A program made the translations under genes and the position numbers. From positions 3,862,482 through 3,926,481 of the forward strand of contig OZ242320.1 of the NCBI GenBank assembly GCA_965208125.1: a stretch of DNA of 64,000 nucleotides, in the 5' to 3' direction. The DNA comes from Candidatus Latescibacterota bacterium. GTDB taxonomy: Bacteria; Latescibacterota; UBA2968. This document shows, one piece after another, positions 5,971-30,844 of the stretch (positions within the stretch are counted from its first letter, which is position 1; the number at the start of each line of letters is the position of its first letter). The notes beneath the pieces were generated by a model. It saw only the letters and a list, made by a program, of their open reading frames with translations, searched no databases and was not told where the DNA came from.

Positions 5971-6010
5971 TGCCAGACAATCTGATTTCCATTTTTTTCG
6001 TTGTCTGGCA
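5971..6010. repeat. perfect 10-nt inverted repeat TGCCAGACAA-N20-TTGTCTGGCA
   Basis: Read directly. 5971-5980 is the exact reverse complement of 6001-6010. Confidence 0.9.
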
Positions 6011-6021
6011 TGTTTTTTGCT
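6006..6021 (+). promoter_or_regulatory. candidate sigma-54 (-24/-12) promoter
   Basis: TGGCAT-GTTTT-TTGCT matches TGGCAC-N5-TTGCW with exact GG/GC spacing. It lies 122 nt upstream of the start at 6143, in an AT-rich 314-nt spacer next to a bEBP gene. Caveat: the same bases can be read as the descending arm plus T-tract of a terminator hairpin. Confidence 0.5.
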
Positions 6022-6142
6022 TATAGGTTAAATAAGATAAAATAATTTTTTGATGAATTGATTCAGCCACCTTAAAATTACACTTAATCCCTGCCAAATC
6101 TACTGCCTCAATTTCTGTCCCGATTATCGCGAGGAATATACG

Positions 6143-6544
6143 TTGAACAGGCGCATTTTGATTGTCTCCGAAGATTCCCGGCTGGCCTGGGACGTGAAAA
6201 ATCTTCTGTCTGGCGAACCTGTGGAACAGACTGAAGTGCGTTCCGGGCAGGCATGTCTGGATATGATTGTGAGTACTCCTGTGGAAATTGTCGTGATAGA
6301 CGACCGTCTCCAGGATATGCAGGCAGTGGATCTAATCAGACATATCAAATCCACAGTGCCAGATATAATCGTCATCCTGGGTGCCTATAAACATTCTATC
6401 CAGGATGAAATAGAGGCCAGGCGAGCTGGGGCCTCCTACTGTATCATCGGTCCCGGCGAATACGATACCCTCTACCAGTTTTTGCTACAGGCCATTGCGT
6501 TAGAAAACAGACACCTTTTGAGTAAAAATAAAAAAAGGAGGTGA
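6143..6544 (+). CDS. stand-alone CheY-like receiver domain protein (atypical)
   Basis: 133 aa, TTG start with GAGGA 8 nt upstream. ILIVSED, VVIDD (phospho-acceptor Asp position) and AGASYCIIGP are collinear with CheY. By eye, the Thr87 and Lys109 equivalents are Gly. Confidence 0.75.
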   Translation: MNRRILIVSEDSRLAWDVKNLLSGEPVEQTEVRSGQACLDMIVSTPVEIVVIDDRLQDMQAVDLIRHIKSTVPDIIVILGAYKHSIQDEIEARRAGASYCIIGPGEYDTLYQFLLQAIALENRHLLSKNKKRR

Positions 6545-6623
6545 TATCGCGTTTAACACAGCTACAATAGTCACGATAGATGTGGATTCATCCTGATTAC
6601 ACCAAATCCGAGAGGAGGCGTTT

Positions 6624-7334
6624 ATGATTCGATTTCGAAGTATTTTGTTTGGCGGAGTTCTCGTGCTGATCCTGGGAGGAATCTCATTCGCCCAGGAATT
6701 TACTCCCCGAGTGGGCATCGCGGGGAATATTAGCGTGAACCTGCCTGTACTGGGACTCCGAACCTGGTTTACACAGGCCCCGCAATTCGGGGTCAATATT
6801 GTGTATCATCGCCATGCGCGGATAGAAGTGGAGTACGAATATCACTACGCCCGGTTTGACGGTGGGAGTCTGGAGGATGCCGAGTTTATGTGGGCACCAA
6901 CCGGTACCACAGATCTTCAGTCTTACAAAAGCCCCAACGCGCAATCCAGGATGCGTTTTCACAGCTTTCTGGTCAACGGCGTCTTCTTTTTTGGCAAGCA
7001 ACTCAATGACCAAAAGGCTCGGCCTTATTTCACATTCGGGAGCGGTATGTATCACTATCGTACTACTGAAACAGGGCTGATCTTTCCAGGACAAACGGGT
7101 AACTCGTTGAACACCAGCATTGTTCTGGAATCCGACGGGGATGTCCGAACAACTGTCGGTATCAATTTTGGTCTGGGCGTTGCTTTCTATACATCCGATC
7201 GATTCGCCCTTGATTTGCGTGGTCGATACCACATTATCATAGGTCAGTTACGCCCCATGGAGGCGTGGGGATTGAAGCAGGTTTTTCCCTTCCATGCGCT
7301 GGATCTGGGCATTCGCGTGAAGACCTACTTTTAG
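6624..7334 (+). CDS. small outer-membrane beta-barrel protein
   Basis: 236 aa. Signal peptide (…GGISFAQE), alternating amphipathic strands, and a C-terminal aromatic residue (…IRVKTYF). Confidence 0.7.
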   Translation: MIRFRSILFGGVLVLILGGISFAQEFTPRVGIAGNISVNLPVLGLRTWFTQAPQFGVNIVYHRHARIEVEYEYHYARFDGGSLEDAEFMWAPTGTTDLQSYKSPNAQSRMRFHSFLVNGVFFFGKQLNDQKARPYFTFGSGMYHYRTTETGLIFPGQTGNSLNTSIVLESDGDVRTTVGINFGLGVAFYTSDRFALDLRGRYHIIIGQLRPMEAWGLKQVFPFHALDLGIRVKTYF

Positions 7335-7346
7335 GGGGAACACAAT

Positions 7347-10300
7347 ATGCGAGAATCAAAACAAATTCTCCTGTGGTGCATGGCGCTGAGTCTGGTTCTG
7401 TTCGGTGCTGACTTGACATTCGCCGCCACTACGGGAAAGATTTCTGGTACTGTCAGAGACGCCCAGGGGCAACCGCTTCCCGGAGCCAATGTGGTCGTCA
7501 AGGGGATGCGTTTGGGGGCTACCACAGACGCCGATGGAATTTATTTTATTCTTACCGTACCACCTGGGGTGCACACATTGACTGCCTCTCTGGTGGGCTA
7601 TGGAACGATCTCTCAAACCGATGTAAAAGTCGCCGTTGACCTGACTACGACGGTCGATTTCGCGCTGGAGGAAATAGCTCTACAGGCCACAGAATTGGTT
7701 GTGATTGCCGAGCGTCCACCTGTGGAACCGGATAAAACCACCAGCAAATACATCCTGGGATCAGAGGAAATTGAGTCGCTTCCCATCATCAGGAGCGTTT
7801 CTGGACTCCTCGCTTTACAGCCCGGCGTTTTGCCGGAGGGAAACGACATGATTCGCGGAACTGGTGCCGCGGATGTGACCTATTACATAGATGGAATCCC
7901 CATTGTGACCACCGATGGCGTGGGTGCATTTGACCGTTTCCAGTTTCAAAACACATCGGCTGTCCAGGAACTCACCGTATTGACCGGAGGATGGGAGGCA
8001 GAATATGGCAATGCCCAGGCCGGTATCATCAATCTGGTCACGCGGGAGGCAGGGGAAAACTATTCTGGACGATTGGAGTACAAGTTTGATCCTTCGGGCA
8101 AAAAACACTGGGGTAACGACGTTTACGACGCTCCTCAGTTTAGAGATAACTTGAAGTGGGGAGATGCCGCCTGGGAAAATGAGACAGATCCCGAAACGGG
8201 ACAAACTATTCACCAGCGGATCGATTATGCCGATGCAGCAGGCCATTTCATAGAGGCGAATCTATCTGGACCACTTACGCCTGACGCCGGGCTATTCGTC
8301 AGCACGCGCTTTGATCGGTCCGCCCGTTCGTTTCCTTCCTCTTCCTCGCACACTCCGGGAAATACCCGCAATACAGTCAAGCTAAATTACAATATGTCAG
8401 ACAATGTAAAGTTCAAGCTCGGGGGATTCTACCATTGGAGCAAAGGGTGGAACAACGGCACCAGTTTGGGTAGAAGCGCTACGGCCGGTGCTATCCGGGG
8501 TCTGGGAGACGGTGGGAGAAATGTCTTTCTACCGGAAGGAAGTTCTGCGGGACGGTTCACGGATAGTGAGAGTTTGATCTACGCCTCTTTGACCCACACT
8601 TTGAGTCCAAAGACATTCTATGAAGCCAAAATATCGCGCTCTTTTTCCAGGCAAGATACCAGCGATATTCCCGCAGCGACTCAGCCCCTGCGCAGGGATG
8701 CGGCCGGGTACTTCAACCTGTCGCGCGACGTGCGTGCCTACGAAATTTCAGCGCGCGCGCGTTACAACGTCAAGTTCGATATTTCCAGCCAGATCACGAG
8801 GGGACATCTGGTCAAGACCGGGGCTGACTTCACCTATTCCGACGCCTGGGCATTTGGCGAGATTGGAGAAAACGAGTCCCGTCGCGTCGTTGCCTTTTAC
8901 GCAAAAGATGGGGCTCCAGATGGAAACTTTCAGCGGGGAATCAACCCTTTTCAGTGGGGACTCTATTTGCAAGATAAGATGGAATTCAGCGGCATGATCG
9001 TCAATGCAGGCGTTCGCCTGGATGGATTCCACAATGGAGAAAAAGGCTCCGCAGTTCCACCTTTTGAAACATCACCTATGTACAACAAACTCCGACATTT
9101 TCGAAACGCACCACGGGCAGACGCCGATGCCAAAATCGCGTTCAGCCCTCGATTGGGTGTTTCACATCCCATCACCGCTGCAAGCACCATCCGGTTTTTC
9201 TATGGGAGATTTTACAAATTTCCGAATCTCTGGACGATGAACCGGCAGGTCTGGGTGGGGAGCTTTCCCGACATCGACATCAACGGCAACGGACAGATTG
9301 ATCCCGAGGAGCGGTTCAATGATCTCGGAAAGGAAAACCAGATCGGCGTTGGAAACATAGCCACACCGCCGGAGAAAACCACCAGTTTTGAGGTGGGAAC
9401 CGACTGGAACGTGGTTTCGGACTATACTTTATCGCTAACCGCCTACTACAAAACGGTAGATAATCAGTTATCTACTGGTACAACGGGCGGCGAGACGACG
9501 ATCTGGCAGGATCCCGGCACGGGAAGAACCGAGCAGATCCGTGTCAACCTGAGTATCAGATATGAGGATATCAAGGGAATTGAGCTTGGTTTCCAGAAGC
9601 GATTCAGCAATAACTTCGCGTTTCAGACGTCTTTTAACGCGCAGTGGCTATCGGGAGGGCGTGCAGGGGGAGCAGGGGACAGGTTCTTCCCGGATTCAAC
9701 GTGGGTCGCCGCTGGAAATTACTGGTTTGGCTATGAGATTCGAAACGGGCAGGAGGTTCCGATTCCACTGACCCAGGATGAGATCCGAGAAATCGGATCC
9801 AAAGCGAATCAACTTCTTCGCGACATCCAGGCAGGTGGTGGTCCCAGCAAGGGACAGGCAGGACCGAATGAACATTTTCTGGCAGCTATTGAAAAGGAAC
9901 CCGGCATCTGGGCTATCACCCCCATTCTTTCCGAGTTGAATATTGGCGGCATACGGGGCAGGGACAGAACGGCATTTGGGAGCGTGGCGTTTCTCTACCG
10001 AACGCCGAGCGATTGGGGCCCAATGGTTGGCGAAGCGGGTTTGTTCGGGAATATTCAGGCCAACATGATTTATCGCATGCAGACCGGCAGCCGGTTTGAA
10101 TACTCGCTTCCAGAAGGTGGCGTGGAGGAACGAAATGAGCCACTTCGCACCTGGGTTGATTTGAATGCCCAAAAGACGTTCTACGGCCTGAGGGACCGCT
10201 TCGATGCCACGTTGTTCGTCGAAACATACAATCTGTTCAACCAGAAAGATCGGCGGGCAAACAACTTCGATTATATTCAATGGGGTTTGAGAAGACCCAT

Positions 10301-10400
10301 ACCAACAGACCAGCTCTACAGGAATTTCGGAGATCCGAACGACAGGGCCTTTCTGGGCTCCCCAAGGCAGGTGCATTTGGGATTGAGACTCAGTTTCTAA
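7347..10400 (+). CDS. TonB-dependent receptor with N-terminal carboxypeptidase-regulatory-like domain
   Basis: 1017 aa. Signal peptide (…LTFAATTG), CarboxypepD_reg-like sandwich (GKISGTVRDAQGQPLPGANVVVKG..TDADGIYFI), plug-like segment (IRGTGAADVTYYIDGIPI) and barrel ending …HLGLRLSF. Confidence 0.85.
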   Translation: MRESKQILLWCMALSLVLFGADLTFAATTGKISGTVRDAQGQPLPGANVVVKGMRLGATTDADGIYFILTVPPGVHTLTASLVGYGTISQTDVKVAVDLTTTVDFALEEIALQATELVVIAERPPVEPDKTTSKYILGSEEIESLPIIRSVSGLLALQPGVLPEGNDMIRGTGAADVTYYIDGIPIVTTDGVGAFDRFQFQNTSAVQELTVLTGGWEAEYGNAQAGIINLVTREAGENYSGRLEYKFDPSGKKHWGNDVYDAPQFRDNLKWGDAAWENETDPETGQTIHQRIDYADAAGHFIEANLSGPLTPDAGLFVSTRFDRSARSFPSSSSHTPGNTRNTVKLNYNMSDNVKFKLGGFYHWSKGWNNGTSLGRSATAGAIRGLGDGGRNVFLPEGSSAGRFTDSESLIYASLTHTLSPKTFYEAKISRSFSRQDTSDIPAATQPLRRDAAGYFNLSRDVRAYEISARARYNVKFDISSQITRGHLVKTGADFTYSDAWAFGEIGENESRRVVAFYAKDGAPDGNFQRGINPFQWGLYLQDKMEFSGMIVNAGVRLDGFHNGEKGSAVPPFETSPMYNKLRHFRNAPRADADAKIAFSPRLGVSHPITAASTIRFFYGRFYKFPNLWTMNRQVWVGSFPDIDINGNGQIDPEERFNDLGKENQIGVGNIATPPEKTTSFEVGTDWNVVSDYTLSLTAYYKTVDNQLSTGTTGGETTIWQDPGTGRTEQIRVNLSIRYEDIKGIELGFQKRFSNNFAFQTSFNAQWLSGGRAGGAGDRFFPDSTWVAAGNYWFGYEIRNGQEVPIPLTQDEIREIGSKANQLLRDIQAGGGPSKGQAGPNEHFLAAIEKEPGIWAITPILSELNIGGIRGRDRTAFGSVAFLYRTPSDWGPMVGEAGLFGNIQANMIYRMQTGSRFEYSLPEGGVEERNEPLRTWVDLNAQKTFYGLRDRFDATLFVETYNLFNQKDRRANNFDYIQWGLRRPIPTDQLYRNFGDPNDRAFLGSPRQVHLGLRLSF

Positions 10401-10414
10401 GAGGATAAGACAAC

Positions 10415-12673
10415 ATGATTACTATAAAAAGAAGAAGCATCTTGTTTCTGCTTTTTCCATTGCTGGCGACCCTCTTGCTAACTTCGGAATTGTGGGCGCA
10501 GTCGAGTCCCTTCCAGAGGAAATTCCGACACATGACGCGGGGGAAGGTCTGGCATACGTACAGGAACGGACTCACAGGTCGGGTTCACCGACAGGTGATG
10601 AGGGATATAGCCGGTATGCAATATCCGGGTTCCATCATTCCGCTGGAACCCACCGAGTTTGAGCAATACTGGAGCTTTGTCAACTATCACTGGTATCCGA
10701 GGTTTACCCGCCGATACGACACCTCTCGGGGCGAGGGTGTAATGATTCTAACAAGAGATCACGGCACCTCGGCAGTTGGCCCGAGTCAGGAAACCGAGGA
10801 TATTCGGGAAAAGGTCTATGACATTGTCAACAGCCCGGAAAAAGATCTGGGATTTATGACCGCCTCCCACTTTACCGGGTTCAGCCCGATGTCCAACTAC
10901 TGGCCCGGAGCACCTCCAATTGTGGGTGAGCCTGTGGAAATCCACAACCACGACTATGGGCGGTATATCGGGGACGATTCTCAAGGTGAGGAAATTCTCA
11001 TCACGGCATGGTCCTCCAAAACGGGTATCAGTGTGTCGCAAAAAGCCTTTTCCTGGAGCTATCCCGACTTTGACGACTTCATCATTTACGAATATACTTT
11101 CCACAACAATGGAGACGCCAACGGAGACGGCCAGCCGGATCCCGGTATGCCCGTGCAACTCAACGACGTCTATTTTGCGTTCGTAAACATCATGACCATC
11201 TCTCAGGCGGGGTGCTTTATTTCAAGCCCGGGTGCGTGGTGGGTCGATTTCCCCGAATTGAGGGACGATTTCTACAGATACACCGGTGCAGCTAACTACG
11301 ATGGTCCGGCCGAATACGCTGACCTGAAGCTCAGCTACCACTACGACGGGGACGCGCCTTCTACTTTGTGGAATGACGTTGGTGGACCCTACGTTTCGGC
11401 GCGTCACCATTCACTGTTCAAAGGCACGGCGCGAGTCGATGGAGAACTGACAGACTTCCAGTACTTTGGGTTTGCCCCTCTGGATTATACCCCACCCTTT
11501 ACAAACGATTCGGAAAACTACGTTGCGCCAAAAGTCGCGGATCAGCCGGTGTCGGTAAAGTGGTGGGAAATCTTCAGCAGAAATAACTACACATACCCGG
11601 ATCCCAGTAATGATGGTGATGAGCAACTGTGGAACAAACTCGTCGAAGACCAGGGATTCCAATCCAACCCCACCGACATCGGTGATTACGCCCACAGTCA
11701 AACGTATGGACCATACGATATTGGTCCTGGTGAAAAAGTGAAAATCGTGGCGGTTTTTGCCGGGGGAACAGCTGCCGACGCCAAGGGTACGGGCATCATC
11801 GAATGGGCGCAAACGGGCAATCAAGACGAGGTTTCTCTGGGTCGGGAGGCCCTCGTGGATCACGTGCGCCGTGCTCAATTCGCCTACGATAGCGGCTACG
11901 ATCTGCCCGACCCGCCTCCGGATGTGCGATTTTCAGTGGGAAATAGCGAACGTGGGCAGGTTCTCCTCACATGGCCAGATGATGCCGATCGCGCGTTGGA
12001 TCCAGACTATGGCCAGGCCGACTTAAGAGCCTACCGGGTCTATCGTTCGGGGACCAAGGAAGCGGGGCCTTACAAGTTGCTGAAAGAGATTCCCGTGGGA
12101 GATGCCGCGCATTTGAGTGGCGGCACCTATTCCTTCGAGGATGAGACTTCCGCTCCCGGCTTCAACTACTGGTACTCGGTCCGCTCGGTTGATTCCGGGC
12201 ATTCATCCTGGACTAATAACGACGGTACCAAGACGCTTGCAGACCTGCCCGACAAGGTGCGACAGAATGTCCAGAGTGGCATGGAAAGCGGGCATTCCTC
12301 GCCTGAGCAGCGGATGCAGGTCTTCACCAGTCCGAAGATCCCCGCAACTGCTACCAAAGACAATTTCGGCGATGAAATCCTGGTCGTGCCCAATCCCTAT
12401 CGGGATGATGGCACACACAGGTATCCGGGATCCAGAAAGATTCGATTTACAAATATCCCCAGAAAGGCCCAGATCAAGATCTATTCTCCATCTGGAGACC
12501 TGATCTGGACGATCAATCACGATTCGCCCCTGGGAGAGGCAGAATGGAATCAGGCGCCGCGATCCTTCGCGAGGCCGGAAGTACAGTCAGGCATCTACTT
12601 CTACTCTGTGGAATCCCTTGTGGAATCATCTCAGGGGGAGATGCGGTTCGGTTCATTTGTAATCATCAAATAG
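10415..12673 (+). CDS. secreted protein of unknown function with FN3-like module and T9SS-type (FlgD-Ig/Por_Secre_tail-like) C-terminal sorting domain
   Basis: 752 aa with a signal peptide. FN3-like segment (VLLTWPDDADRA…YRVYRSG…YWYSVRSVD). The last ~90 aa (VVPNPY…IKIYSPSGDLIWTI…SGIYFYSVE…GSFVIIK) fit the T9SS CTD pattern. Confidence 0.65.
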   Translation: MITIKRRSILFLLFPLLATLLLTSELWAQSSPFQRKFRHMTRGKVWHTYRNGLTGRVHRQVMRDIAGMQYPGSIIPLEPTEFEQYWSFVNYHWYPRFTRRYDTSRGEGVMILTRDHGTSAVGPSQETEDIREKVYDIVNSPEKDLGFMTASHFTGFSPMSNYWPGAPPIVGEPVEIHNHDYGRYIGDDSQGEEILITAWSSKTGISVSQKAFSWSYPDFDDFIIYEYTFHNNGDANGDGQPDPGMPVQLNDVYFAFVNIMTISQAGCFISSPGAWWVDFPELRDDFYRYTGAANYDGPAEYADLKLSYHYDGDAPSTLWNDVGGPYVSARHHSLFKGTARVDGELTDFQYFGFAPLDYTPPFTNDSENYVAPKVADQPVSVKWWEIFSRNNYTYPDPSNDGDEQLWNKLVEDQGFQSNPTDIGDYAHSQTYGPYDIGPGEKVKIVAVFAGGTAADAKGTGIIEWAQTGNQDEVSLGREALVDHVRRAQFAYDSGYDLPDPPPDVRFSVGNSERGQVLLTWPDDADRALDPDYGQADLRAYRVYRSGTKEAGPYKLLKEIPVGDAAHLSGGTYSFEDETSAPGFNYWYSVRSVDSGHSSWTNNDGTKTLADLPDKVRQNVQSGMESGHSSPEQRMQVFTSPKIPATATKDNFGDEILVVPNPYRDDGTHRYPGSRKIRFTNIPRKAQIKIYSPSGDLIWTINHDSPLGEAEWNQAPRSFARPEVQSGIYFYSVESLVESSQGEMRFGSFVIIK

Positions 12674-12688
12674 TCAAGGAGCTTTGCT

Positions 12689-13678
12689 ATGATGACCAGG
12701 ATATACGCATCAATCTGCGTATTCGCGATTGTGATTTTGCTGCAATCGCCCGCCCAGGGACAGGGATATGTGGAAATCGAGGATGAGGATATTTATTCCT
12801 CAACCGCTGCTTCGCGAATTGGGCTTACAGGATTTGCATTTCTGAAGATTTCCCAGGGGGCGCGGTCTGCGGGAATGGGGGATGCGTACACGGCCATATC
12901 CAATGATATCAATGCGGCATTCAAGAATCCTGCCGGTTTGACCCATATGAAACGGATTGAGTACGTGTTCTCTTACAACCGATGGTTGGTAAACAGCACG
13001 GTTGCTTCCAGCGCTGTTGCGGCGAATACGCCTTATGGCGTGGTGGGCGTTACTTTTATCGGTTTCTACCCTGAGAAGAGCAAGGAAACCACCATACTCC
13101 AGCCGCTCGGAACAGGAGAGATGGTGAATGCTGGGGATGTCGCCATCGGATTTCTTTACGCGAAGAAAATGACCGATAGGCTCTCCTTCGGCGCTCACGG
13201 TCGCTGGATTCAGGAAACGCTGCACGACAAGAAAATTTCCAGTTACGATGTCTCACTCGGCACGCTGTTCTACACGGGATTTGGCTCCAGCAGGTTGGCG
13301 ATGACATTACAAAATTTCGGCAAAGACGTAACGCCGGAAGCGGTCACTTTCGCCATGCCAATGGTTTTCAATATCGCCGCTGCTATGGAGGTTTACGGAA
13401 CAGTAGAAGATCCCACCTACCTCACAGCCGCAGTCGATTTCAGCTATGCCACTGATTTCGGTGAGCGGTTACATTTTGGCGGTGAGCTCTGGGTCGCAAG
13501 GGTGCTCGCGCTTCGAGCTGGATACAAGACCAATTACGACATCGAGAGTTATTCACTTGGTGCCGGTGTTCGCGTGAACTATGTGGGAGGTAGGCAGGTC
13601 TCTGTCGATTTTGCCTATTCGGCGATTGAGGGTGGCTTTGATCCTCCGCTGCGCGTATCTCTGAGTGGGAGTTTTTAG
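12689..13678 (+). CDS. PorV/PorQ-family (FadL-like) outer-membrane barrel
   Basis: 329 aa with a signal peptide. The family-typical N-terminal motif GARSAGMGDAYTAISNDINAAFKNPAGL is present, and the barrel ends …VSLSGSF. Confidence 0.7.
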   Translation: MMTRIYASICVFAIVILLQSPAQGQGYVEIEDEDIYSSTAASRIGLTGFAFLKISQGARSAGMGDAYTAISNDINAAFKNPAGLTHMKRIEYVFSYNRWLVNSTVASSAVAANTPYGVVGVTFIGFYPEKSKETTILQPLGTGEMVNAGDVAIGFLYAKKMTDRLSFGAHGRWIQETLHDKKISSYDVSLGTLFYTGFGSSRLAMTLQNFGKDVTPEAVTFAMPMVFNIAAAMEVYGTVEDPTYLTAAVDFSYATDFGERLHFGGELWVARVLALRAGYKTNYDIESYSLGAGVRVNYVGGRQVSVDFAYSAIEGGFDPPLRVSLSGSF

Positions 13679-22084: not shown

Positions 22085-22101
22085 TTCGCTCTGTGCGGCC
22101 T

Positions 22102-23693: not shown

Positions 23694-25424
23694 ATGCCAC
23701 ACGCCAACCAGATTGATCCCATCCGATTTGAGGTCATCCGCAATGCGCTGTCCGAAGCCACGGAAGAAATGGCGATTGCCCTGCGCCGCAGTGCCTACTC
23801 CACCAATATTAAAACCCGAGCCGACTTCTCCTGTGTCCTTTTTGACAGCCGGGTTCGGGTCGTCGCTCAGGCTTTCGCGCAGCCCGTCCATCTCGGCTCC
23901 CTGTCCTTACTTGTACCCAGGATGGTGGAAGCATACGGGGCTGAAAATCTGGGTCCCGGTGACGCTATCCTGGCCAACGATCCCTACCTGGGTGGCGTAC
24001 ACCTGAATGACATCACCCTCATTTCACCAGTATATTACAACAACACTTGCCTGGGGTATGTTGCCAACCTGGCTCACCATGTAGATGTAGGTGGAGGGGC
24101 CCCCGCGAGCATTGGTGCTTTCAGGGAAGTGTTTCAGGAGGGCGTCATCATTCCGCCAGTCAAGCTCGTTGAGCGGGGCGAACTCGTCCCCAATATCTTC
24201 GATCTCATCCTCGCGCAAATTCGTTCGAAACGCGAAATGGCAGGCGATCTGCGTGCCCAAATCGCAGCCAATAACACAGGCGTTCGCCGTTTATGTGCCC
24301 TCGCCGATCGCATAGGTGGCGACACGGTGTCGTTCTACATTCGCGAATTGATTGCCTACACGGAACGGCGCACGCGCGTGGAAATTAGAAATTTGCCGAA
24401 TGGCGATTTTTCGGCCGATGGGCAGGTGGATAACGACGGTTTTACGGACCGGCCAGTACACCTTGCCGCGCGAATCAGCATTCAGGATGATCAGATATGC
24501 TTTGATTTTACCGGCTCTGACGTTCAGCGTAGCGCACCGGTGAATTCAACCGTAGCGATGACTTTTTCCGCCTGTGCCTATGTTCTCAAGTGCCTCATTG
24601 ACCCGGATGTGCCAGTTAATGCGGGTTTCTATAATACGGTTCAAATGGTTGCGCCAGAGGGAACGGTTGTCAACTGTTCTCCCCACGCACCGGTTGTCGG
24701 AGGCTGGGAGACCCAATTACGGCTAACAGATGTCATATTGAGGGCCCTGGCTCCCGCATTTCCCGATCACATTCCAGCAGGTAGTAAAGCCATGGTATGT
24801 CATGCGGGATTCGGCGGAATTATCGCCAGCACAGGCGAGTATTACTGCTTTTTGGAAACCCTGGCCGGTGGCTATGGTGGTCGTGCCGCGAGCGATGGGC
24901 CGGACGCCGTTCAGACTCATGGGCAGAACACCGAAAACGCACCCATTGAGGAGACAGAAATCAACTACCCGGTACGCATCGCGCGCTACGAACTGGTTGA
25001 GAACTCCGAAGGCCCTGGTAAATTTCGGGGCGGATTGGGCCTCCGGCGTGACTACCTCTTCCCCGATCATGAAGCCTCCTTCACCATCCTCGCTGATCGC
25101 GACAGGAAGGGCCCCGGGGGCCTTTTCGGCGGCAAACCTGGCCGCACGGCCAGTTATTTTCTCAATTCGAATGGAAAAACCGTCCGACTTGGTTCGAAAA
25201 CTACCGTCCAGCTTCAACCGGGAGATATTGTCAGCTATCGCACCTGCGGTGGCGGCGGCTACGGTCTGCCCGCGGATCGGGATCCCGAACGCGTGTTGCG
25301 CGACGTGCGAAACGGTATGGTCAGCCGGGAGCGAGCAAGGGAGATCTACCGAACGGAGATCGATACGGAGGCCTGGCGTGTGAACGATGGAGAAACGATG
25401 AGGTTGCGGAGCGAGATTACCTGA
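23694..25424 (+). CDS. hydantoinase B/oxoprolinase-family subunit (HyuB-1)
   Basis: 576 aa. DPIRFEVIRNAL…, NDPYLGGVHLNDI, AHHVDVGG and GGGGYG near the C-terminus are typical of the Hydantoinase_B family. Confidence 0.85.
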   Translation: MPHANQIDPIRFEVIRNALSEATEEMAIALRRSAYSTNIKTRADFSCVLFDSRVRVVAQAFAQPVHLGSLSLLVPRMVEAYGAENLGPGDAILANDPYLGGVHLNDITLISPVYYNNTCLGYVANLAHHVDVGGGAPASIGAFREVFQEGVIIPPVKLVERGELVPNIFDLILAQIRSKREMAGDLRAQIAANNTGVRRLCALADRIGGDTVSFYIRELIAYTERRTRVEIRNLPNGDFSADGQVDNDGFTDRPVHLAARISIQDDQICFDFTGSDVQRSAPVNSTVAMTFSACAYVLKCLIDPDVPVNAGFYNTVQMVAPEGTVVNCSPHAPVVGGWETQLRLTDVILRALAPAFPDHIPAGSKAMVCHAGFGGIIASTGEYYCFLETLAGGYGGRAASDGPDAVQTHGQNTENAPIEETEINYPVRIARYELVENSEGPGKFRGGLGLRRDYLFPDHEASFTILADRDRKGPGGLFGGKPGRTASYFLNSNGKTVRLGSKTTVQLQPGDIVSYRTCGGGGYGLPADRDPERVLRDVRNGMVSRERAREIYRTEIDTEAWRVNDGETMRLRSEIT

Positions 25425-25454
25425 TCATCCACCCGGTTCTGGAGGAACATAAGA

Positions 25455-27542
25455 ATGGCGTACCGGCTGGGCATTGACACTGGTGGAACATTCACAGATG
25501 CAACGCTCATCGATGAAGAAACTGGAGACATCCGCGTCGGCAAGGTGTCGTCCACACCGGGGGACCCTTCTCTCGGATTTATGGAAGCCACCCGTCGAAT
25601 TCTGGGCGAATCAGAAATTGAACCGAATGAAGTGGGCTATATCGTACACGGAACCACAGTGGTCACCAATGCAATTATCGAAGGCAAAACCGCTCGGACG
25701 GGTTTTATCACCACCGGTGGCTTCCGCGATCTGCTTGAAATCGCGCGCCAGATCCGTCCGTCGCTTTACGACCTGCAGTTTGAAAAGCCCCGGCCGCTGG
25801 TACCGCGCTACCTCTGCTTCGGTGTGCCGGAGCGTCTGGATGCAAGGGGAAAAATTCTCGAACCTCTCGATGAAAAGGCCGTTTCCGCCGCGGCGAGCCA
25901 ACTGCGCCGGGAGGCTGTGGAATCGATCGCGGTCTGCCTGCTTCACGCCTACACCAATCCCACCCACGAGCAGCGAGTCGAAGAGATCCTGAGGAGGGAC
26001 TTTCCCGAAGCGATGGTGTCGCTGTCTTCGGAAGTATCACCGGAATTCAGGGAGTATTTTCGGGCCAGCACCACCGTCATCAACGCCTGTATCCGGCCTA
26101 TTGCTGCGCGCTATTTGGAAAATATCCAGACTCGGTTGCGAGAAGAAGGGTTAACGGCGCAACTTTTGGTGATGCAAAGCAGTGGGGGAGTTCTGACCTT
26201 TGGAGCGGCAGCTAAAAAACCAGTTTTTCTCGTCGAATCAGGTCCCGCAGCCGGGGTGATCGCAGCTACCTATCTGGGCGATACACTGGGCCATCCCAAT
26301 GTGATCTCTTTTGACATGGGCGGAACAACGGCCAAAGCGGGCCTCGTACAGGATGGGCGGCCTCAGGTGACCATGGATTACGAGGTCGGGGCTACTGCTC
26401 AGGCGGGTGCTGGTGGGGCAAGAGGCGGGGGATATCCCATCCGCACGCCTGTCATTGATCTGGTGGAAATTGGCGCTGGTGGGGGGTCAATCGCCTGGGT
26501 AGATCCGGGTGGTGTGTTGCGGGTGGGACCACATAGCGCGGGAGCCGATCCCGGCCCGGTGTGCTACGGAAAGGGCGGCGAAGATCCCACGATCACCGAT
26601 GCCAACCTGGTGCTGGGGCGCCTCAACCCGGATTATTTTTTGGGCGGTGAGATCGCACTGGACGCGGAAGCCGCTCGAATGGCGATTCAGCAGAAATGCG
26701 CTGACCCGCTGGGATTGGATTCCGTAGAAGCCGCCTACGGGATTGTGGAAATCGCCAACGCGGCCATGGTCAACGCCCTCCGGCTGGTTTCTGTTCAGCG
26801 GGGATACGATCCGAGAGAATTCGTGTTGGTGGCCTTCGGCGGGGCAGGCCCGGTACATGCCTGCCGCCTGATGGCAGAAATGGAGATTCCGACTATCCTG
26901 ATTCCGATGAGTCCGGGAACCACTTCGGCGATGGGTCTGCTCGTGACAGATCTCAAGCACGACTATTCGACAACATTTATATGTCAGGTAGATAAGCTGG
27001 ATCTCAAAAAGGTGGCGACGGCATTCCGCAATATGGAACAACAGGGGAGAGCGATACTGGAGGAAGAAGGGGTGCAGGACAAGGACAAGGACTTCCTGCG
27101 CCAGGTAGATATGCGCTATGTAGGCCAGAGCTATGAATTGACCGTGCCGCTTTCCGAAACTGAATTCACACCAGCCGGGATTGAAGCCCTGCTGATCTAC
27201 TTTCATCGGGAACACGACCGGGCCTACGGATACAGCGCTCCTGAAGAACCTGCGGAATTTGTCAATCTCCGTCTTTCAGCAATCGGCCGAATCGCAAAAC
27301 CCCGACTCCGTAGCCTTGATTCAAATTCAGACGCTCCGGCTCTCAAAACCAGCCGCCCCGTTTACTTTGCCGAGCGCAATGGATTTGTGGATTGTCCGAT
27401 TTACGACCGCTATACCCTCGCCGCGGGGAATATTTTGGATGGCCCTGCGATCATTGAAGAAATAGATTCCACGAGCGTTATCCACCCCGGGTACCGGGGA
27501 ACCGTAGATACGTACGGGAACCTGATTTTGACCCGGGAATGA
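25455..27542 (+). CDS. hydantoinase A/oxoprolinase-family subunit (HyuA-1)
   Basis: 695 aa. YRLGIDTGGTFTD, GTTVVTNAIIE, SFDMGGTTAK and EIGAGGGSIA are the Hydant_A_N plus Hydantoinase_A (ASKHA-fold) motifs. Confidence 0.85.
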   Translation: MAYRLGIDTGGTFTDATLIDEETGDIRVGKVSSTPGDPSLGFMEATRRILGESEIEPNEVGYIVHGTTVVTNAIIEGKTARTGFITTGGFRDLLEIARQIRPSLYDLQFEKPRPLVPRYLCFGVPERLDARGKILEPLDEKAVSAAASQLRREAVESIAVCLLHAYTNPTHEQRVEEILRRDFPEAMVSLSSEVSPEFREYFRASTTVINACIRPIAARYLENIQTRLREEGLTAQLLVMQSSGGVLTFGAAAKKPVFLVESGPAAGVIAATYLGDTLGHPNVISFDMGGTTAKAGLVQDGRPQVTMDYEVGATAQAGAGGARGGGYPIRTPVIDLVEIGAGGGSIAWVDPGGVLRVGPHSAGADPGPVCYGKGGEDPTITDANLVLGRLNPDYFLGGEIALDAEAARMAIQQKCADPLGLDSVEAAYGIVEIANAAMVNALRLVSVQRGYDPREFVLVAFGGAGPVHACRLMAEMEIPTILIPMSPGTTSAMGLLVTDLKHDYSTTFICQVDKLDLKKVATAFRNMEQQGRAILEEEGVQDKDKDFLRQVDMRYVGQSYELTVPLSETEFTPAGIEALLIYFHREHDRAYGYSAPEEPAEFVNLRLSAIGRIAKPRLRSLDSNSDAPALKTSRPVYFAERNGFVDCPIYDRYTLAAGNILDGPAIIEEIDSTSVIHPGYRGTVDTYGNLILTRE

Positions 27543-27593
27543 CCCGGACGTCTCCGGATACAGAGCAGAGCGAGAATTCTGGAATACACTGAT

Positions 27594-29522
27594 ATGGCAG
27601 AGGAGCAAAGGATGCCTCATAGTGAAGCTGAATACGGAATCGTCCTGTCGAAAAACGTCATGGTCTCCATGCGGGACGGTACTCGTCTGGCCACAGATAT
27701 TTACCGTCCAGCACGCGATGGAGACCCACTGCCGGGGCCCTTTCCCACAATTCTGTGTCGCACCCCGTATGACAAATCCGATGCACGCTATGAGGAAATA
27801 GGAGACTTCTTTACGCCACATGGGTATGTGACCGTGCTCCAGGACCTGCGAGGCCGACACCGTTCCGAAGGTTTGGGTCAGTACTTCCACGTTGCCAACA
27901 TCAATGACGGCCTGGACGGCTATGACACGGTAGAATGGATCGCTGCCCAGCCCTGGTCAAACAAACGCGTGGGGGCTGTTGGCAGTTCTTTCGCGGCTCT
28001 GGTGCAGACACGAATGGCGTTTCACCGTCCGCCGCATCTCACCGCCATCTGGCCAGACGTAACACCCATCAACAGCTATCACCACCAGGCTCGGGAAGGC
28101 GGGGCTATGCAGATGCACATGTTCTGGGCGCTTTACCTCCATGCTCAGGACGCACAGGAAATCCAGAATGACCCTGAAGCGCAGGACGCTGTCTGGAACG
28201 ATCTCCGTGGGATTCGCGAGCTTCTCGTTTCAATGCCGTTTCAGCCCGGTCAAACTGCTCTATCCGCAGTTCCCAATCTCGAAAAAACGCTTTTTGACTA
28301 CTATCATCGGGGAGAATACGATAGTTTCTGGGAGCGGGAATACAACGATTTCGAGCGGAATTTCGAACGCCACGCAGACATTCCTGGCACCTATTCAAGC
28401 GGCTGGTACGACCCGTACGCGGTAGCCGTCACGGGCTATTTTGCCGCAATGGCCAAACAAAACTTTTCGCCGCAGCGACTGGTGATGGGCCCCTGGAATC
28501 ACGTGGGGATGAGAGGGGATTCTTCTTTCACGGGAGATGTAGATTTTGGATCTGACAGTGTTTGGGGTGTAAGCAGCTACTTCGAAGAACAACGCCGGTT
28601 TTTTGCCGCATGGCTAAGAGGCAAGTCTTCGGGAAAGGAAGACGACCCACCTGTGAGTATATTTGTGATGGGCGGAGGAACAGGTCGCAAAACAGACGAG
28701 GGAAAATACCATCACGGAGGAAGATGGCGTCGTGAGTGGGAGTGGCCGTTGGCCCGTACCCATACCCTCCAGTACCACTTTCATTCGCAAGGCCTGCTGA
28801 GTACAGATGAGCCGGATGAAGAAAGCTCTCCCTTGTCCTTCACCTACGACCCCGCCAATCCGATACCCACGATTGGAGGCAGTCTGTGCGGTATCATGGA
28901 ACTTCCGAAGGATGATGGAGACCTGGACCAGATGTGGAGCCGATTTCTCTCGCCGGTCACGCGACTGCGCAACATCGTCATTCCCGGGCCGGCCCATCAA
29001 AAGGAATCTGCCGACGTATTTGGCGCGAATCCCCCTTACCAGCTTTTGGCGGATCGACCGGATGTGCTGGTCTTTCAGACATCTCCTCTGGAGGAGGATC
29101 TGGAAGTAACCGGATCCGCCATCGTCACATTGTGGATTTCTTCCTCGGCTCCCGATACCGATTTCACCGCGAAGCTCATTGACCTTGCGCCAGCCAACGA
29201 TGACTATCCGGACGGATATGCAATGAACCTCGTGGATTCCGTGATTCGCACGCGGTATCGAAATAGCTGGGAACAGGAAGAACTCATGGAACCCGGTGAA
29301 GTCTATCGGGTTCAGATTCCTCTGCCCCCAACCAGTAATTTGTTTCAGGCCGGGCATCGGATTCGGATCGATATATCCAGCAGCAATTTCCCCCGCCTGG
29401 ACCTGAATCCCAATACGGGCGAGCCGATGGGAAGGCATACACACACGGTACCCGCACGCAACAAGGTATATATGGACAAGCAGCGCCCATCGGGCGTGCT
29501 TCTGCCGACGATCCCCGTCTGA
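27594..29522 (+). CDS. CocE/NonD-family (peptidase S15, Xaa-Pro dipeptidyl-peptidase-like) hydrolase
   Basis: 642 aa. MRDGTRLATDIYRP, RTPYDK, QDLRGR..SEG, WSNKRVGAVGSSF (nucleophile elbow) and a C-terminal beta-sandwich (…RIRIDISSSNFPR). Confidence 0.8.
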   Translation: MAEEQRMPHSEAEYGIVLSKNVMVSMRDGTRLATDIYRPARDGDPLPGPFPTILCRTPYDKSDARYEEIGDFFTPHGYVTVLQDLRGRHRSEGLGQYFHVANINDGLDGYDTVEWIAAQPWSNKRVGAVGSSFAALVQTRMAFHRPPHLTAIWPDVTPINSYHHQAREGGAMQMHMFWALYLHAQDAQEIQNDPEAQDAVWNDLRGIRELLVSMPFQPGQTALSAVPNLEKTLFDYYHRGEYDSFWEREYNDFERNFERHADIPGTYSSGWYDPYAVAVTGYFAAMAKQNFSPQRLVMGPWNHVGMRGDSSFTGDVDFGSDSVWGVSSYFEEQRRFFAAWLRGKSSGKEDDPPVSIFVMGGGTGRKTDEGKYHHGGRWRREWEWPLARTHTLQYHFHSQGLLSTDEPDEESSPLSFTYDPANPIPTIGGSLCGIMELPKDDGDLDQMWSRFLSPVTRLRNIVIPGPAHQKESADVFGANPPYQLLADRPDVLVFQTSPLEEDLEVTGSAIVTLWISSSAPDTDFTAKLIDLAPANDDYPDGYAMNLVDSVIRTRYRNSWEQEELMEPGEVYRVQIPLPPTSNLFQAGHRIRIDISSSNFPRLDLNPNTGEPMGRHTHTVPARNKVYMDKQRPSGVLLPTIPV

Positions 29523-29542
29523 GCATTCATTGGAGAGAACAC

Positions 29543-30844
29543 ATGGAAACTCGATTGCAGGCCGGATTTGCACGAACGGATATTACCCCAGATCTGGGAT
29601 GTCTGCTGCTGGGCTACCCGGCCCCAGACCGCAGAGCCGAATCCGTACGCGACCGACTCAACGCGAATGCGCTCTACCTGGAACAAAATAGCGTGAGAGC
29701 CGTCATCTTGAGCCTTGATGTGTGCATTGTAGATGATGTCGAAGTCGAGTCTATTCGCCAGGGAATCTATGATCGAACAGGCATCCCTTCGGATCATATC
29801 ACTGTCTGTGCTATCCAGACTCACAGTGGACCCTGCACCATTGATTGCTGGGGATGGAGCGAAAAGGACAAACCGTATATCGATAGGCTCGTCGAGAGAA
29901 GCATTGAAGCCGCCGTCACCGCTGCTCAATCACCCATACCTATAACTGTAGGCATCGGCACAACGCAGAGTGACGTGGGGGTCAACCGACGAGAGGTCCT
30001 TGAAAACCACGAAGTTGCCCTGGGTGTCAATCCCTGGGGGCCTTATGATCCCGATATGACCCTTTTGCGATTTGAAGGGAAGGATGGGCCACTTGTCTCA
30101 TTGATCCACTACGGCGCGCATCCAACCGTTTTCTCCAGTGCCAACAGGGCAGTGTCCCGCGATTGGCCAGGTGTCATGATCGACCGGGTGGAACACCTCA
30201 CGGGCGTCCCGACTTTCTTTGTCAATGGTGCCGTAGGTGACATCGCTCCCCGCACCAATAGTCTCCGCGCCGTCGGAGATGGCGAAATGGCGCTCATGGA
30301 AGTCGGAGGGCGAGCGGGTATGGATGCGATGCGTGCTTACCGGTCCATCAAGACGTTCCAAGACCTGCCGTTGTCCATCATTACCGGAGACATCATGATG
30401 CCTTACCGGTCGCTGCCGCCACTGGAAGAAGCAGAGCGGGAGTTTGCCTTGACTAAATCCGAAAAAGATGAGCCAGGGAAGGGCATGTGCGAGTACAAAC
30501 ACTGGGAAGCCGTTATCCATGCCCACAAAACCGAACCGTTACCTGGCACAACTTACCGGCAGGTGATCACTGCTCTCGGGCCGATTGCATTTGTCCCTTT
30601 TCCCGGCGAGCCATTCGCAGAAATCGTTCTTCGATTGCGCCAGTACAGTCCCTTTCAATATACGCTTTGCGCCAGTACTTCGTGTGGCAGCTATGGCTAT
30701 TTCGTCACGCGGGATTCGCTGCACCGCGGTGGGTACGAAGTCTGGGTGGCCAAAGCCTTCGGCGCGTACATTCTGGCTGAAAATATCGACGACGTCCTGG
30801 TCGAAGAAAATCTGGCTCTCCTGCACAATCTGCACGACCTGTAG
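29543..30844 (+). CDS. ceramidase-N-domain-like Zn amidohydrolase, paralog P2
   Basis: 433 aa. ARTDITPDLGCLLLGY, IQTHSGP, HYGAHPT and GAVGDIAP. Same subfamily as P1. Confidence 0.65.
   Translation: METRLQAGFARTDITPDLGCLLLGYPAPDRRAESVRDRLNANALYLEQNSVRAVILSLDVCIVDDVEVESIRQGIYDRTGIPSDHITVCAIQTHSGPCTIDCWGWSEKDKPYIDRLVERSIEAAVTAAQSPIPITVGIGTTQSDVGVNRREVLENHEVALGVNPWGPYDPDMTLLRFEGKDGPLVSLIHYGAHPTVFSSANRAVSRDWPGVMIDRVEHLTGVPTFFVNGAVGDIAPRTNSLRAVGDGEMALMEVGGRAGMDAMRAYRSIKTFQDLPLSIITGDIMMPYRSLPPLEEAEREFALTKSEKDEPGKGMCEYKHWEAVIHAHKTEPLPGTTYRQVITALGPIAFVPFPGEPFAEIVLRLRQYSPFQYTLCASTSCGSYGYFVTRDSLHRGGYEVWVAKAFGAYILAENIDDVLVEENLALLHNLHDL

Follow-up and report, generated by a model that had tools for sequence, protein, structure and literature searches.

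The stretch of DNA analyzed here (referred to as the window) spans 64,000 nucleotides (nt) of contig OZ242320.1 from a metagenome-assembled genome of a Candidatus Latescibacterota bacterium (GenBank assembly GCA_965208125.1, positions 3,862,482 to 3,926,481 of the forward strand). It contains an array of 15 genes, all located on the + strand between positions 6143 and 30844, in which genes for outer-membrane proteins are followed by genes for inner-membrane permeases and for enzymes. The list of open reading frames (ORFs) and their translations reproduced exactly the 15 co-directional genes and the gap lengths given in a preliminary description of the same DNA, and the family assignments made there were all recovered with Pfam and NCBIfam. 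The gaps, in gene order, are 79, 12, 14, 15, 100, 12, 14, 71, 19, 17, 83, 30, 51 and 20 nt.

The first gene (6143-6544; 133 aa, TTG start), which had been left unnamed, encodes a stand-alone response-regulator receiver domain according to Pfam, NCBIfam and an alignment. It is followed by the four genes of an outer-membrane cassette: a small outer-membrane beta-barrel with a signal peptide (6624-7334; 236 aa, weak OMP_b-brl match), which is the first gene of the cassette; a TonB-dependent transporter with a signal peptide (7347-10400; 1017 aa, CarboxypepD_reg and Plug domains); a secreted all-beta multidomain protein of 752 aa, with a signal peptide and without a lipobox (10415-12673; weak CHU_C and PorZ C-terminal matches, and a structural model); and a PorV/PorQ-family outer-membrane barrel (12689-13678; 329 aa, NF033709). 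Then come a polytopic inner-membrane protein with DUF6785 and DUF6784 domains (13779-15767; 662 aa, TTG start; Pfam and model), a ceramidase-fold Zn amidase, CerA (15780-17129; 449 aa, Ceramidase_alk N-terminal domain), a Cys-type sulfatase (17144-18616; 490 aa, Pfam and the CVPSR motif) and a second DUF6785/DUF6784 permease (18688-20634; 648 aa, Pfam). The array is completed by a DUF3604 (CehA/McbA) metallohydrolase (20654-22084; 476 aa, Pfam/NCBIfam), an M81 (MlrC-like) metallopeptidase (22102-23610; 502 aa, DUF1485 and MlrC_C), HyuB (23694-25424; Hydantoinase_B), HyuA (25455-27542; Hydantoinase_A), an S15 CocE/NonD serine hydrolase (27594-29522; 642 aa, Pfam/NCBIfam) and a second ceramidase-fold amidase, CerB (29543-30844; 433 aa, Ceramidase_alk N-terminal domain). 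Three genes have longer alternative starts (17096, 18541 and 21964), with which they would run into the gene before them; their domain matches set in immediately behind the shorter starts. Hydrophobic N-terminal leaders were found only in the four outer-membrane proteins and in none of the eight enzymes, confirming that the latter are leaderless.

None of the array genes gave a match to a SusD-family Pfam domain. No terminator-like hairpin is present in any of its intergenic gaps; since in the consensus scans the counts of both promoter-like and terminator-like sites equal the expectation from shuffled sequences, these scans carry no weight in either direction. The Rfam scan of the whole window gave no match at gathering thresholds, so that no known riboswitch or leader is present in it.

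The analysis of the outer-membrane proteins revealed that the product of 7347-10400 has a leader, a CarboxypepD_reg N-terminal domain, a Plug domain (34 bits versus a cut-off of 23.9), a large divergent barrel and a terminal Phe (...LRLSF), i.e., the signal peptide, plug, large barrel and terminal aromatic residue of a TonB-dependent transporter. Its profile matches the plugs of FepA and PirA (about 1e-12) and, in a SusC homologue, nothing beyond the N-terminal extension and plug. The SusC/RagA model (TIGR04056) gives 68.5 bits versus a cut-off of 368, over residues 31-248 only, so the protein does not fall within that family. The barrel of the window protein has no Pfam match; TonB_dep_Rec_b-barrel is recorded for homologues in two other loci (L086 and L088). 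The profile of the small outer-membrane barrel gave no meaningful match in the Protein Data Bank (PDB). The PorV-like barrel scores 145.1 bits with NF033709 (cut-off 90) and the sole PDB match of its family profile is PorV of F. johnsoniae (6h3i_F, E 1.4e-17); since it reaches none of the PorV, PorQ and PorV2 equivalog cut-offs, it is to be considered a member of the family and not the orthologue of any one of these proteins.

The 752-aa protein was modeled with confidence (pLDDT 84, pTM 0.85) as an all-beta protein composed of an N-terminal supersandwich, an FN3-like domain and a C-terminal beta-sandwich (approximately residues 655-752) resembling type IX secretion system (T9SS) sorting domains. 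Its fold matches are at the domain level only: the N-terminal beta-sandwiches of the glycoside hydrolase (GH) families GH94, GH65, GH116 and GH15 (TM about 0.2), FN3 domains and PorZ (5m11). No catalytic domain was recognized in the model and fold search, and no lipobox Cys follows the leader. A SusD-like fold was considered and rejected, because the model is all-beta with domain-level beta matches. With E<=1e-30, a profile search of 1.84 billion representatives retrieved 1,021 clusters (50% identity), most of them over the full length. Pfam has no model for this family, and its named members are all annotated as "hypothetical protein". The C-terminal 100 residues or so are the best conserved part of the family (mean pairwise identity 0.50 versus 0.41-0.46 elsewhere) and their consensus contains a V-P-N-P motif, which is typical of type A sorting domains. 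The C-terminal domains (CTDs) of 36 family members matched the PorZ C-terminus in 17 cases, PorU in seven, FlgD_ig in seven, CHU_C in five and Por_Secre_tail in three, counting matches irrespective of curated cut-offs. It is known that, among T9SS proteins, PorU and PorZ are the two whose CTD is retained, that they are held at the cell surface by PorV and PorQ, respectively (PMC5562754), and that the genes of cargo proteins with a type B CTD adjoin the gene of their own PorP/SprF-like anchor or shuttle barrel (PMC9143113, PMC12618676). By analogy, we infer that the 752-aa protein might be displayed at the surface by the docking of its CTD to the adjacent PorV-like barrel and might act as the substrate-capture partner of the transporter.

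The two DUF6785/DUF6784 proteins share 70% identity, and the duplication is limited to the gene itself (about 70-73% identity at the DNA level). In each of them, hydropathy analysis detected 15 hydrophobic segments that overlap in part; about 20 helices are present in the model. For the AlphaFold2 model (pLDDT 85, pTM 0.87), significant PDB fold matches (Foldseek) were limited to barley Yellow Stripe 1 (YS1; 7wst and 7wsr, E 5e-9 and 3e-8), over the full length and about 680 columns with a TM of 0.59-0.66, all other matches having a probability <=0.15. A link with the oligopeptide transporter (OPT) family at the sequence level was rejected by the Pfam OPT model and by the PDB search, and only the link in fold stands; one database annotation labels a DUF6785 homologue "OPT/YSL family transporter". 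Because the predicted fold matches YS1 while the sequence link is absent, the DUF6785/DUF6784 proteins are treated here as putative secondary transporters with an OPT fold and not as members of the OPT family. The preliminary description had called them unknown permeases; the two polytopic membrane proteins were correctly recognized, and the model now provides them with an OPT/YSL fold. OPT/YSL transporters (TC 2.A.67) are known for the transport of peptides and of amino-acid-derived chelates. The fold says little about the substrate, since the paralogues occupy loci of very different enzyme content.

Relatives of DUF6785 were retrieved by a pattern scan of contigs from one genome per species, which yielded at least 578 confirmed stretches, and the best 80 loci (labeled with an L) were analyzed; almost all of them belong to Latescibacterota or to metagenome-assembled genomes (MAGs) labeled Gemmatimonadota, often with several loci per genome. 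The homologue of the first DUF6785 protein of the window encoded on contig OZ242311.1 is 99% identical to it. Direct tandems of DUF6785 genes are common (L036, L037, L043, L044, L046, L055, L057, L061, L068, L078, L082 and others), often together with SBP_bac_1, PhyH and beta-helix/PKD proteins; because such tandems are frequent, paired permeases may be a regular feature, e.g., a heteromer or two different specificities.

The recurrence of the uptake genes was measured by tblastn and by clustering of the window proteins against the 80 loci. A cassette emerged with a constant order and on one strand: small outer-membrane barrel, TonB-dependent transporter, 752-aa protein, PorV-like barrel and, after zero to five other genes, DUF6785. 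The identity of the cassette proteins among these recurrences is only 30-50%. The 752-aa family has 32 instances in 19 assemblies among these loci, and the PorV-like gene is located directly 3' of it in 31 of the 32; the barrel and the transporter lie upstream of it wherever the flank reaches, with few exceptions. The highest number of cassette instances in one genome is six (OZ244960.1), and in two loci a pair of cassettes lies within 22 kb. In every sampled case, the cassette is followed on the same strand, and after short gaps, by catabolic genes, which differ from one locus to another and include TPR, FG-GAP/ASPIC, heparinase II/III, RGL11, UxuA, GFO/IDH/MocA and PhyH proteins; gamma-glutamyltranspeptidase (GGT) and an aminotransferase; and a protein with a formylglycine-generating enzyme (FGE) domain, an arylsulfotransferase, DegT, a sulfatase and PhyH in L081. 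Thus, the idea that the uptake genes form a meaningful unit is borne out by the recurrence of the same order and strand, both within and across genomes, in front of varied enzyme sets.

Even distant 752-aa homologues (23-29% identity) are still located between a CarboxypepD_reg transporter and a protein of about 330 aa, which the profiles assign to the transporter family (E 1e-109 to 1e-122) and to the PorV-like family (E 1e-55 to 1e-79). These distant loci carry GH106, GH39, sugar kinases, Por_Secre_tail proteins and a sugar transporter of the ATP-binding cassette (ABC) type that replaces DUF6785. Since the transporter/752-aa/PorV-like trio persists at such low identity and with an ABC transporter instead of DUF6785, the trio is the conserved core in these comparisons, the small barrel and DUF6785 being the Latescibacterota version. 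As a further observation, a protein of about 460-480 aa with a GWxTD domain is often encoded between the PorV-like gene and DUF6785 (L005, L031, L035, L047, L051 and L081), and TPR+GWxTD proteins of about 830 aa are encoded 3' of several cassettes.

Concerning the enzymes, the sulfatase has the PF00884 domain (166 bits) and the CVPSR formylglycine motif at residue 53, as expected of a formylglycine-dependent sulfatase; it resembles choline sulfatases (TIGR03417, 343.7 bits), below the equivalog cut-off of 433.45, and the sulfatases of the window carry an SGSH_C domain. The two ceramidase-like proteins match the N-terminal domain with 36.7 and 41.1 bits (cut-off 32.1). CerA keeps the HTHxGP motif, the His of the "HST" region and the GY...Y region of Pseudomonas neutral ceramidase (2zws). 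Both proteins are about 200 aa shorter than neutral ceramidases, lacking the leader and the C-terminal (Ig-like) domain. CerB is 29% identical to CerA and belongs to a subfamily of about 433 aa maintained at 53-76% identity across many phyla. The M81 protein belongs to the M81 Pfam families only and is not a microcystinase by the MlrC model (NF041767, 163 bits versus 999). HyuA and HyuB clearly match Hydantoinase_A and Hydantoinase_B and form an ATP-dependent amide-ring hydrolase pair of the hydantoinase/oxoprolinase type, whose best named relatives are caprolactamases (CapA/CapB models NF050156 and NF050157, 617 and 278 bits versus 1000). An exact-sequence look-up of the S15 protein found no record. 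Overall, HyuA/HyuB, M81, the sulfatase and the ceramidase-fold proteins have the same domain architectures as caprolactamase/5-oxoprolinase/N-methylhydantoinase, MlrC, the choline sulfatase BetC and neutral ceramidase, and the motifs that were checked are kept (CxPxR in the sulfatase; in the ceramidase-fold proteins, HTHxGP and the region of the C-terminal Tyr); the scores with the equivalog models are far below the cut-offs.

The organization of the enzyme half is much less constant than that of the cassette. Four closely related loci (L001-L004), which for the greater part of the array are about 90-98% identical to the window at the nucleotide level, keep its order up to the end of the flank, at about 25.8 kb of the window; L003 and L004 have an additional 1.6 kb, encoding a second DUF3604-like protein, between the second DUF6785 gene and DUF3604. 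A TARA scaffold shows the order sulfatase, second DUF6785 gene, DUF3604. In a further locus, L169, orthologues of the sulfatase (88%), DUF3604 (91%), M81 (86%) and CerB (76%) are arranged as follows: the sulfatase, four other genes (two sulfatases, a DegT/beta-lyase-type enzyme and a polysaccharide deacetylase), DUF3604, M81, CerB and two more sulfatases, with GH2 nearby. The orthologues of CerB are also found in other contexts, for instance, in a Caldilinea MAG (L171), within an ABC operon of the sugar type that comprises GH43 and an FGE-domain gene, or with unrelated neighbors in another Latescibacterota genome. Deep synteny of the enzyme block was sought using M81 as bait and was rejected by 80 metagenome loci with orthologues at 58-76% identity, in which the array genes are not adjacent, except for occasional MR/MLE genes (10 loci) and ceramidase-like genes (seven loci). 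In several of these 10 loci, MR/MLE is located immediately 3' of M81 (e.g., L157, L160, L164 and L167), and the two might be a functional pair; the MR/MLE genes of the window (576-1721 and 59681-60811) are not adjacent to M81. On the basis of gene order, the enzyme half is a lineage-specific mosaic and not a fixed pathway, with a putative core represented by the sulfatase...DUF3604-M81-ceramidase-like genes, to which the second permease and HyuB-HyuA-S15 would have been joined as add-on modules.

The region upstream of the array is also variable. A conserved non-coding region (3848-4064, + strand) comprises a terminator-like hairpin with a T-run (GGGAGATATGGCC...GTCTCCC followed by T7, at about 3863-3900), located after the Ldh_2 gene, and a spacer that holds GGATTATAATTTGCA at 4002-4016. 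A sigma-54 activator (bacterial enhancer-binding protein) gene follows (4065-5828, + strand), identified from its Pfam domains and translation, whose product has no N-terminal sensor domain and consists of two tandem AAA+ modules and a C-terminal HTH_8 domain. The first module is intact; the second, 42% identical to it, is degenerate (GEEGTGCH, no GAFTGA, LFLYE). This sensorless, tandem AAA+ architecture is unusual among enhancer-binding proteins. Downstream of the activator gene, a pattern scan (GG and GC elements spaced as in TGGCAC-N5-TTGC) detected a -24/-12 promoter-like site at 6006-6020 on the + strand, TGGCATgttttTTGC, with one mismatch to the consensus; in the relative L002 the site is perfect, TGGCACaatttTTGC. 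The pattern is not rarer than chance in the window (three matches versus 5.5 expected), and the putative site is supported by its position, in an AT-rich spacer directly 3' of the activator gene. At 5971-6010, two 10-bp arms separated by 20 nt, TGCCAGACAA and TTGTCTGGCA, form a perfect inverted repeat; its right arm overlaps the -24 element and the repeat is kept in L002 with one change, making it a candidate regulator-binding site or RNA hairpin. The receiver encoded 3' of the site, as if split off from the activator, is most similar to NtrC-family receivers; in an alignment with CheY, its acidic pocket and phospho-acceptor Asp (D53) are retained, whereas the conserved Thr and Lys are replaced by Ile and Gly, respectively.

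The comparison of the window with L003 (2585-2843) and L004 (2564-2860) revealed that these two loci lack the segments corresponding to 2599-3847 (Ldh_2) and to about 4019-6581 (activator, promoter and receiver), and retain the whole array. In both, MR/MLE and CAAX genes are followed by the terminator-like hairpin, by about 120 nt of conserved spacer and then by the first outer-membrane gene, so that the region corresponding to 3848-4064 is directly upstream of the latter. For this reason, the conserved spacer, now 5' of the activator gene, is likely the ancestral promoter region. Given its absence from two loci that maintain the array, the 2.5-kb activator-promoter-receiver segment is accessory, as an insertion or a deletion; short GATTyATCCTGA-like sequences at both its edges (about 4071-4085 and 6598-6611) suggest recombination at a short repeat. 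The putative sigma-54 promoter, the only convincing promoter-like element of the preliminary description, cannot be the general driver of the array, since L003 and L004 keep the array without it. As a general property of the cassette, sigma-54 control was likewise rejected, because no such site was found within 500 nt upstream of 22 other outer-membrane barrel starts (background 0.12 per 500 nt).

In L001, whose first DUF6785 gene matches that of the window with 99% identity in protein sequence (96-98% nucleotide identity), the homology to the window stops on the left at 5942, and a 1.2-kb insertion (L001:4536-5733, corresponding to about 9440 of the window) interrupts the TonB-dependent transporter gene. 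The insertion carries an ORF that clusters (c67) with one located at the left end of L001 (L001:1-1025), and the two may be insertion-sequence copies bracketing the promoter, the receiver, the barrel and the 5' part of the transporter gene.

The rest of the window contains a convergent array on the - strand (30923-48511), reported here only for its context and with no implication of co-regulation, in which Pfam disclosed the same enzyme themes: HyuB, HyuA, a beta-eliminating lyase, an AMP-binding ligase and further enzymes. A fourth ceramidase-like paralogue without a Pfam match is encoded at 37411-38832 (- strand; 473 aa, about 26-28% identical to CerB orthologues). The gene at 38948-41896 (- strand) encodes a 982-aa fusion of Hydantoinase_B and a class I/II aminotransferase (Pfam), and its HyuA partner adjoins it (41912-44020); this fusion suggests, as a possible sequence of reactions, the opening of a lactam ring followed by the direct transamination of the released amino acid. 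The third ceramidase-like protein is encoded at 47114-48511 (- strand), adjoining a GH106-like gene. In total, the window harbors three HyuA/HyuB pairs, four ceramidase-like paralogues, two sulfatases, two MR/MLE enzymes and amidohydrolases. A MotA/TolQ/ExbB-family gene at the right end (62012-62773) could be part of a TonB-ExbBD system energizing the transporters. Finally, in the region 54300-62800 the + strand is richer in G than in C (GC skew 0.15-0.41 per 500 nt) regardless of gene orientation; at third codon positions of the coding strand, the skew is +0.39 to +0.55 in five + strand genes and -0.46 to -0.50 in two - strand genes, compared with about -0.2 to 0 elsewhere in the window. The ORFs of this region are intact and have good Pfam matches, and the pattern looks like a strand-specific bias at synonymous sites extending over about 8.5 kb.

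Taken together, these data are best explained by considering the array as one member of a modular class of nutrient-acquisition loci, similar to polysaccharide-utilization loci (PULs), which is strongly expanded in Latescibacterota and present also in Gemmatimonadota-labeled MAGs; the probability that we assign to this interpretation, including the import mechanism that follows, is about 0.6. The 752-aa protein would be exported and then held at the surface by its uncleaved CTD, bound to the PorV/PorQ-like barrel; anchoring through this domain is proposed because the protein has no lipid anchor. It would capture the substrate for the transporter, i.e., it would play the role that SusD and surface glycan-binding proteins have in Bacteroidota, and the TonB-dependent transporter would carry the substrate to the periplasm. 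From there, the OPT-fold permease, present in two copies, would move it intact to the cytoplasm, probably by proton symport. The Cys-type sulfatase might then strip one or more sulfate esters in the cytoplasm, where the Zn amidases, DUF3604, M81, S15 and the ATP-dependent HyuAB would cleave amide, ester or lactam bonds. In this strain, a sigma-54 promoter belonging to an inserted regulator module (tandem-AAA+ activator, promoter and atypical receiver) would add a further level of control. The substrate might be an organic compound that is sulfated, bears N-acyl or amide groups and has a size compatible with the passage through both membranes, e.g., a peptide-like or amino-sugar derivative. The PUL-like logic without SusD already recognized in the preliminary description is therefore maintained and extended to a recurring cassette.

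Some observations weigh against this interpretation. None of 24 DUF6785 members matched the Pfam OPT model (PF03169) at E<=10, and the DUF6785 profile found no match among PDB sequences. The matches of the window protein to T9SS CTDs are below the curated cut-offs, with 18.4 bits for CHU_C (cut-off 27) and 23.7 bits for the PorZ C-terminus. We infer a single transcript for the array only from the short gaps and from the lack of terminator-like sites. The full order of the array was found only in relatives with at least 90% nucleotide identity; L169 lacks the second DUF6785 gene, HyuB, HyuA and S15, with no permease between the sulfatase and DUF3604, and the 80 metagenome loci with M81 orthologues lack the array. 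Hence, when related genomes are compared, the order of the uptake cassette recurs, and its coupling to this enzyme set is limited to very close relatives.

The explanation that comes closest to competing with the modular import locus concerns its substrate. The same mechanism might serve for carbohydrate-derived material, i.e., sulfated N-acylated amino-sugar oligomers or glycoconjugates (glycosaminoglycan-like, or from an algal or sponge matrix); the ceramidase-fold enzymes would then be amino-sugar N-deacylases, and the array a true glycan-utilization locus whose last steps take place in the cytoplasm. Sulfated N-acyl amino-sugar material is favored by the genes surrounding the orthologues of the ceramidase-like proteins and of the sulfatase: L169 carries six further sulfatases beside the sulfatase orthologue, together with Polysacc_deac_1, DegT and GH2, and the Caldilinea CerB orthologue is embedded in the sugar-type ABC operon with GH43 and FGE mentioned above. 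To these can be added the SGSH_C domain of the sulfatases, the GH106-like gene adjoining the third ceramidase-like gene of the window, and the presence of heparinase II/III, RGL11, UxuA, GH106 and GH39 in sister cassettes. However, the + strand array contains neither a glycoside hydrolase nor a lyase, M81, S15 CocE/NonD and the three HyuAB pairs have no known carbohydrate role, and the known substrates of OPT/YSL transporters are of a different kind; the amide, lactam and peptidase enzymes, together with the OPT fold, favor a peptide-like substrate. A carbohydrate-derived substrate thus appears possible, albeit clearly less probable than the broader reading. As far as the preliminary proposal of a sulfated, amide-rich, peptide-like compound is concerned, its sulfated and amide-bearing nature is retained, whereas its restriction to the peptide-like class is not, since the neighborhoods of the ceramidase-like orthologues (sugar ABC operons, GH2, GH43 and many sulfatases) point to amino sugars at least as much as to peptides.

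It is unlikely that the 15 genes form a single operon driven solely by the sigma-54 promoter at 6006-6020 and encoding one pathway for the import and degradation of one sulfated amide-rich or peptide-like compound. The co-directional genes, their short gaps devoid of terminator-like sites, and the position of the sigma-54 site, which adjoins the activator gene and is perfect in L002, are all consistent with such an arrangement, and the M81, S15 and HyuAB enzymes and the OPT-fold permease fit a peptide or lactam chemistry. Nevertheless, the array persists in L003 and L004 without the activator-promoter-receiver segment, other cassettes have no sigma-54 site upstream, and the enzyme content is not fixed: HyuBA, S15 and the second permease are absent from L169, L003 and L004 possess an extra DUF3604 paralogue, and elsewhere the M81 orthologues have other neighbors. 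A single promoter and a single pathway are therefore not established.

At the opposite extreme, the uptake and enzyme halves might be unrelated neighbors, the cassette ending at the first DUF6785 gene or at the first sulfatase and the hydrolases representing an independent catabolic island. The mosaic and lineage-specific nature of the enzyme set, the abundance of similar enzymes on both strands of the 64-kb window, and the 71, 83 and 100 nt gaps, which could hold promoters, would agree with this scenario; we consider it quite improbable, given that all the sampled cassettes are followed by catabolic genes on the same strand after short gaps, that a second copy of the cassette permease is embedded among the enzymes, and that the order is kept in four relatives and in the TARA scaffold. 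Lastly, an outer-membrane module for export or adhesion, i.e., a T9SS-type or Oar-like system secreting or displaying the 752-aa protein, with the permease and the enzymes unrelated to it, could be suggested by the PorV/PorQ family, by the T9SS-like CTD signals and by the fact that CarboxypepD_reg-type TonB-dependent proteins include Myxococcus Oar, implicated in protein secretion, but it is very improbable, since in more than 30 sampled loci the module is constantly accompanied by catabolic enzymes and by an inner-membrane transporter (DUF6785 or ABC), and since its Plug domain and transporter architecture are typical of importers.

The modular import locus preferred here shares several features with the SusC/SusD PULs of Bacteroidota, in which the genes of a TonB-dependent transporter and of its surface partner are adjacent and are followed by those of enzymes and of an inner-membrane transporter, and which exist in many paralogous copies per genome, each with a different enzyme set. 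The differences are as marked: SusD is an all-alpha TPR lipoprotein, whereas the partner in the array is all-beta and non-lipidated, with a T9SS-like CTD and a PorV/PorQ-family barrel encoded next to it; the array transporter is below the SusC/RagA threshold (68 versus 368 bits); the enzymes are cytoplasmic amide and sulfate-ester hydrolases instead of periplasmic or surface glycosidases; and the inner-membrane carrier is DUF6785, with its OPT fold, instead of a major facilitator superfamily protein. With no SusD match, an all-beta partner devoid of a lipobox and a transporter below the SusC/RagA threshold, the array does not belong to the SusC/SusD-type PULs.

The closest parallel for the proposed docking is represented by PorZ-PorQ and PorU-PorV of Porphyromonas (PMC5562754), where a secreted protein retaining its CTD is held at the surface by a PorV/PorQ-family barrel, and the CTDs of the 752-aa family match the C-termini of PorZ and PorU. 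Unlike the 752-aa protein, for which nutrient capture and docking to the barrel are proposed, PorZ and PorU belong to the secretion machinery itself and are not nutrient-capture proteins; their genes are not located beside those of TonB-dependent transporters. With the type B CTD cargo proteins and their PorP/SprF-like barrels (PMC9143113, PMC12618676) the array shares the logic of a cargo gene beside its own barrel gene; it differs in the barrel, of the PorV/PorQ family, and in the link of its function to import, and its CTD, with a PNP-containing consensus, seems to resemble the type A, PorZ and PorU kind more than type B. As for the permease, barley Yellow Stripe 1 (7wst) has a full-length fold, a size and a helix count similar to those predicted for DUF6785, and it is plausible that the latter is a secondary importer of sizeable organic molecules. 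OPT/YSL transporters have no detectable sequence similarity to DUF6785, whose substrate range is probably not limited to peptides and chelates, since its paralogues are located in loci with both glycan-type and amide-type enzymes.

No published description of the cassette, of DUF6785, or of T9SS elements in Latescibacterota was found in a body of literature whose coverage was incomplete, so that this is absence of evidence only. The genome papers on Latescibacteria, PAUC34f and Caldithrix do not describe the cassette, and the literature on PorV, TonB and SusD that was found concerns only Bacteroidota.

Latescibacterota and related uncultured phyla of the Fibrobacterota-Chlorobiota-Bacteroidota (FCB) group are common in sediments, soils and sponges and, to our knowledge, generic annotation is the only source of information on how complex organic matter is taken up by them. 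In this framework, it might be tentatively proposed, with somewhat less than an even chance of being correct, that the transporter/752-aa/PorV-like trio is a widespread and as yet unnamed alternative to SusC/SusD in the FCB phyla outside Bacteroidota, in which the docking of a CTD in a PorV-like barrel replaces the lipid anchor, and that in Latescibacterota it is coupled to DUF6785/DUF6784, a new OPT-fold family importing diverse substrates intact, including sulfated ones destined for cytoplasmic sulfatases. If this is true, the repeated cassette would be a marker for finding and counting substrate-utilization loci, as SusC/SusD is in Bacteroidota, and roles would be provided for three families without a function, i.e., DUF6785/DUF6784, the cargo family of about 750 aa (more than 1,000 clusters) and the PorV-like paralogues. 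The docking of CTDs to PorV/PorQ barrels would also be extended from the secretion machinery to nutrient capture. Finally, the position of leaderless sulfatases behind a permease with an OPT fold points to a cytoplasmic desulfation of some sulfated compounds, which would differ from the periplasmic scheme of the Bacteroidota PULs.

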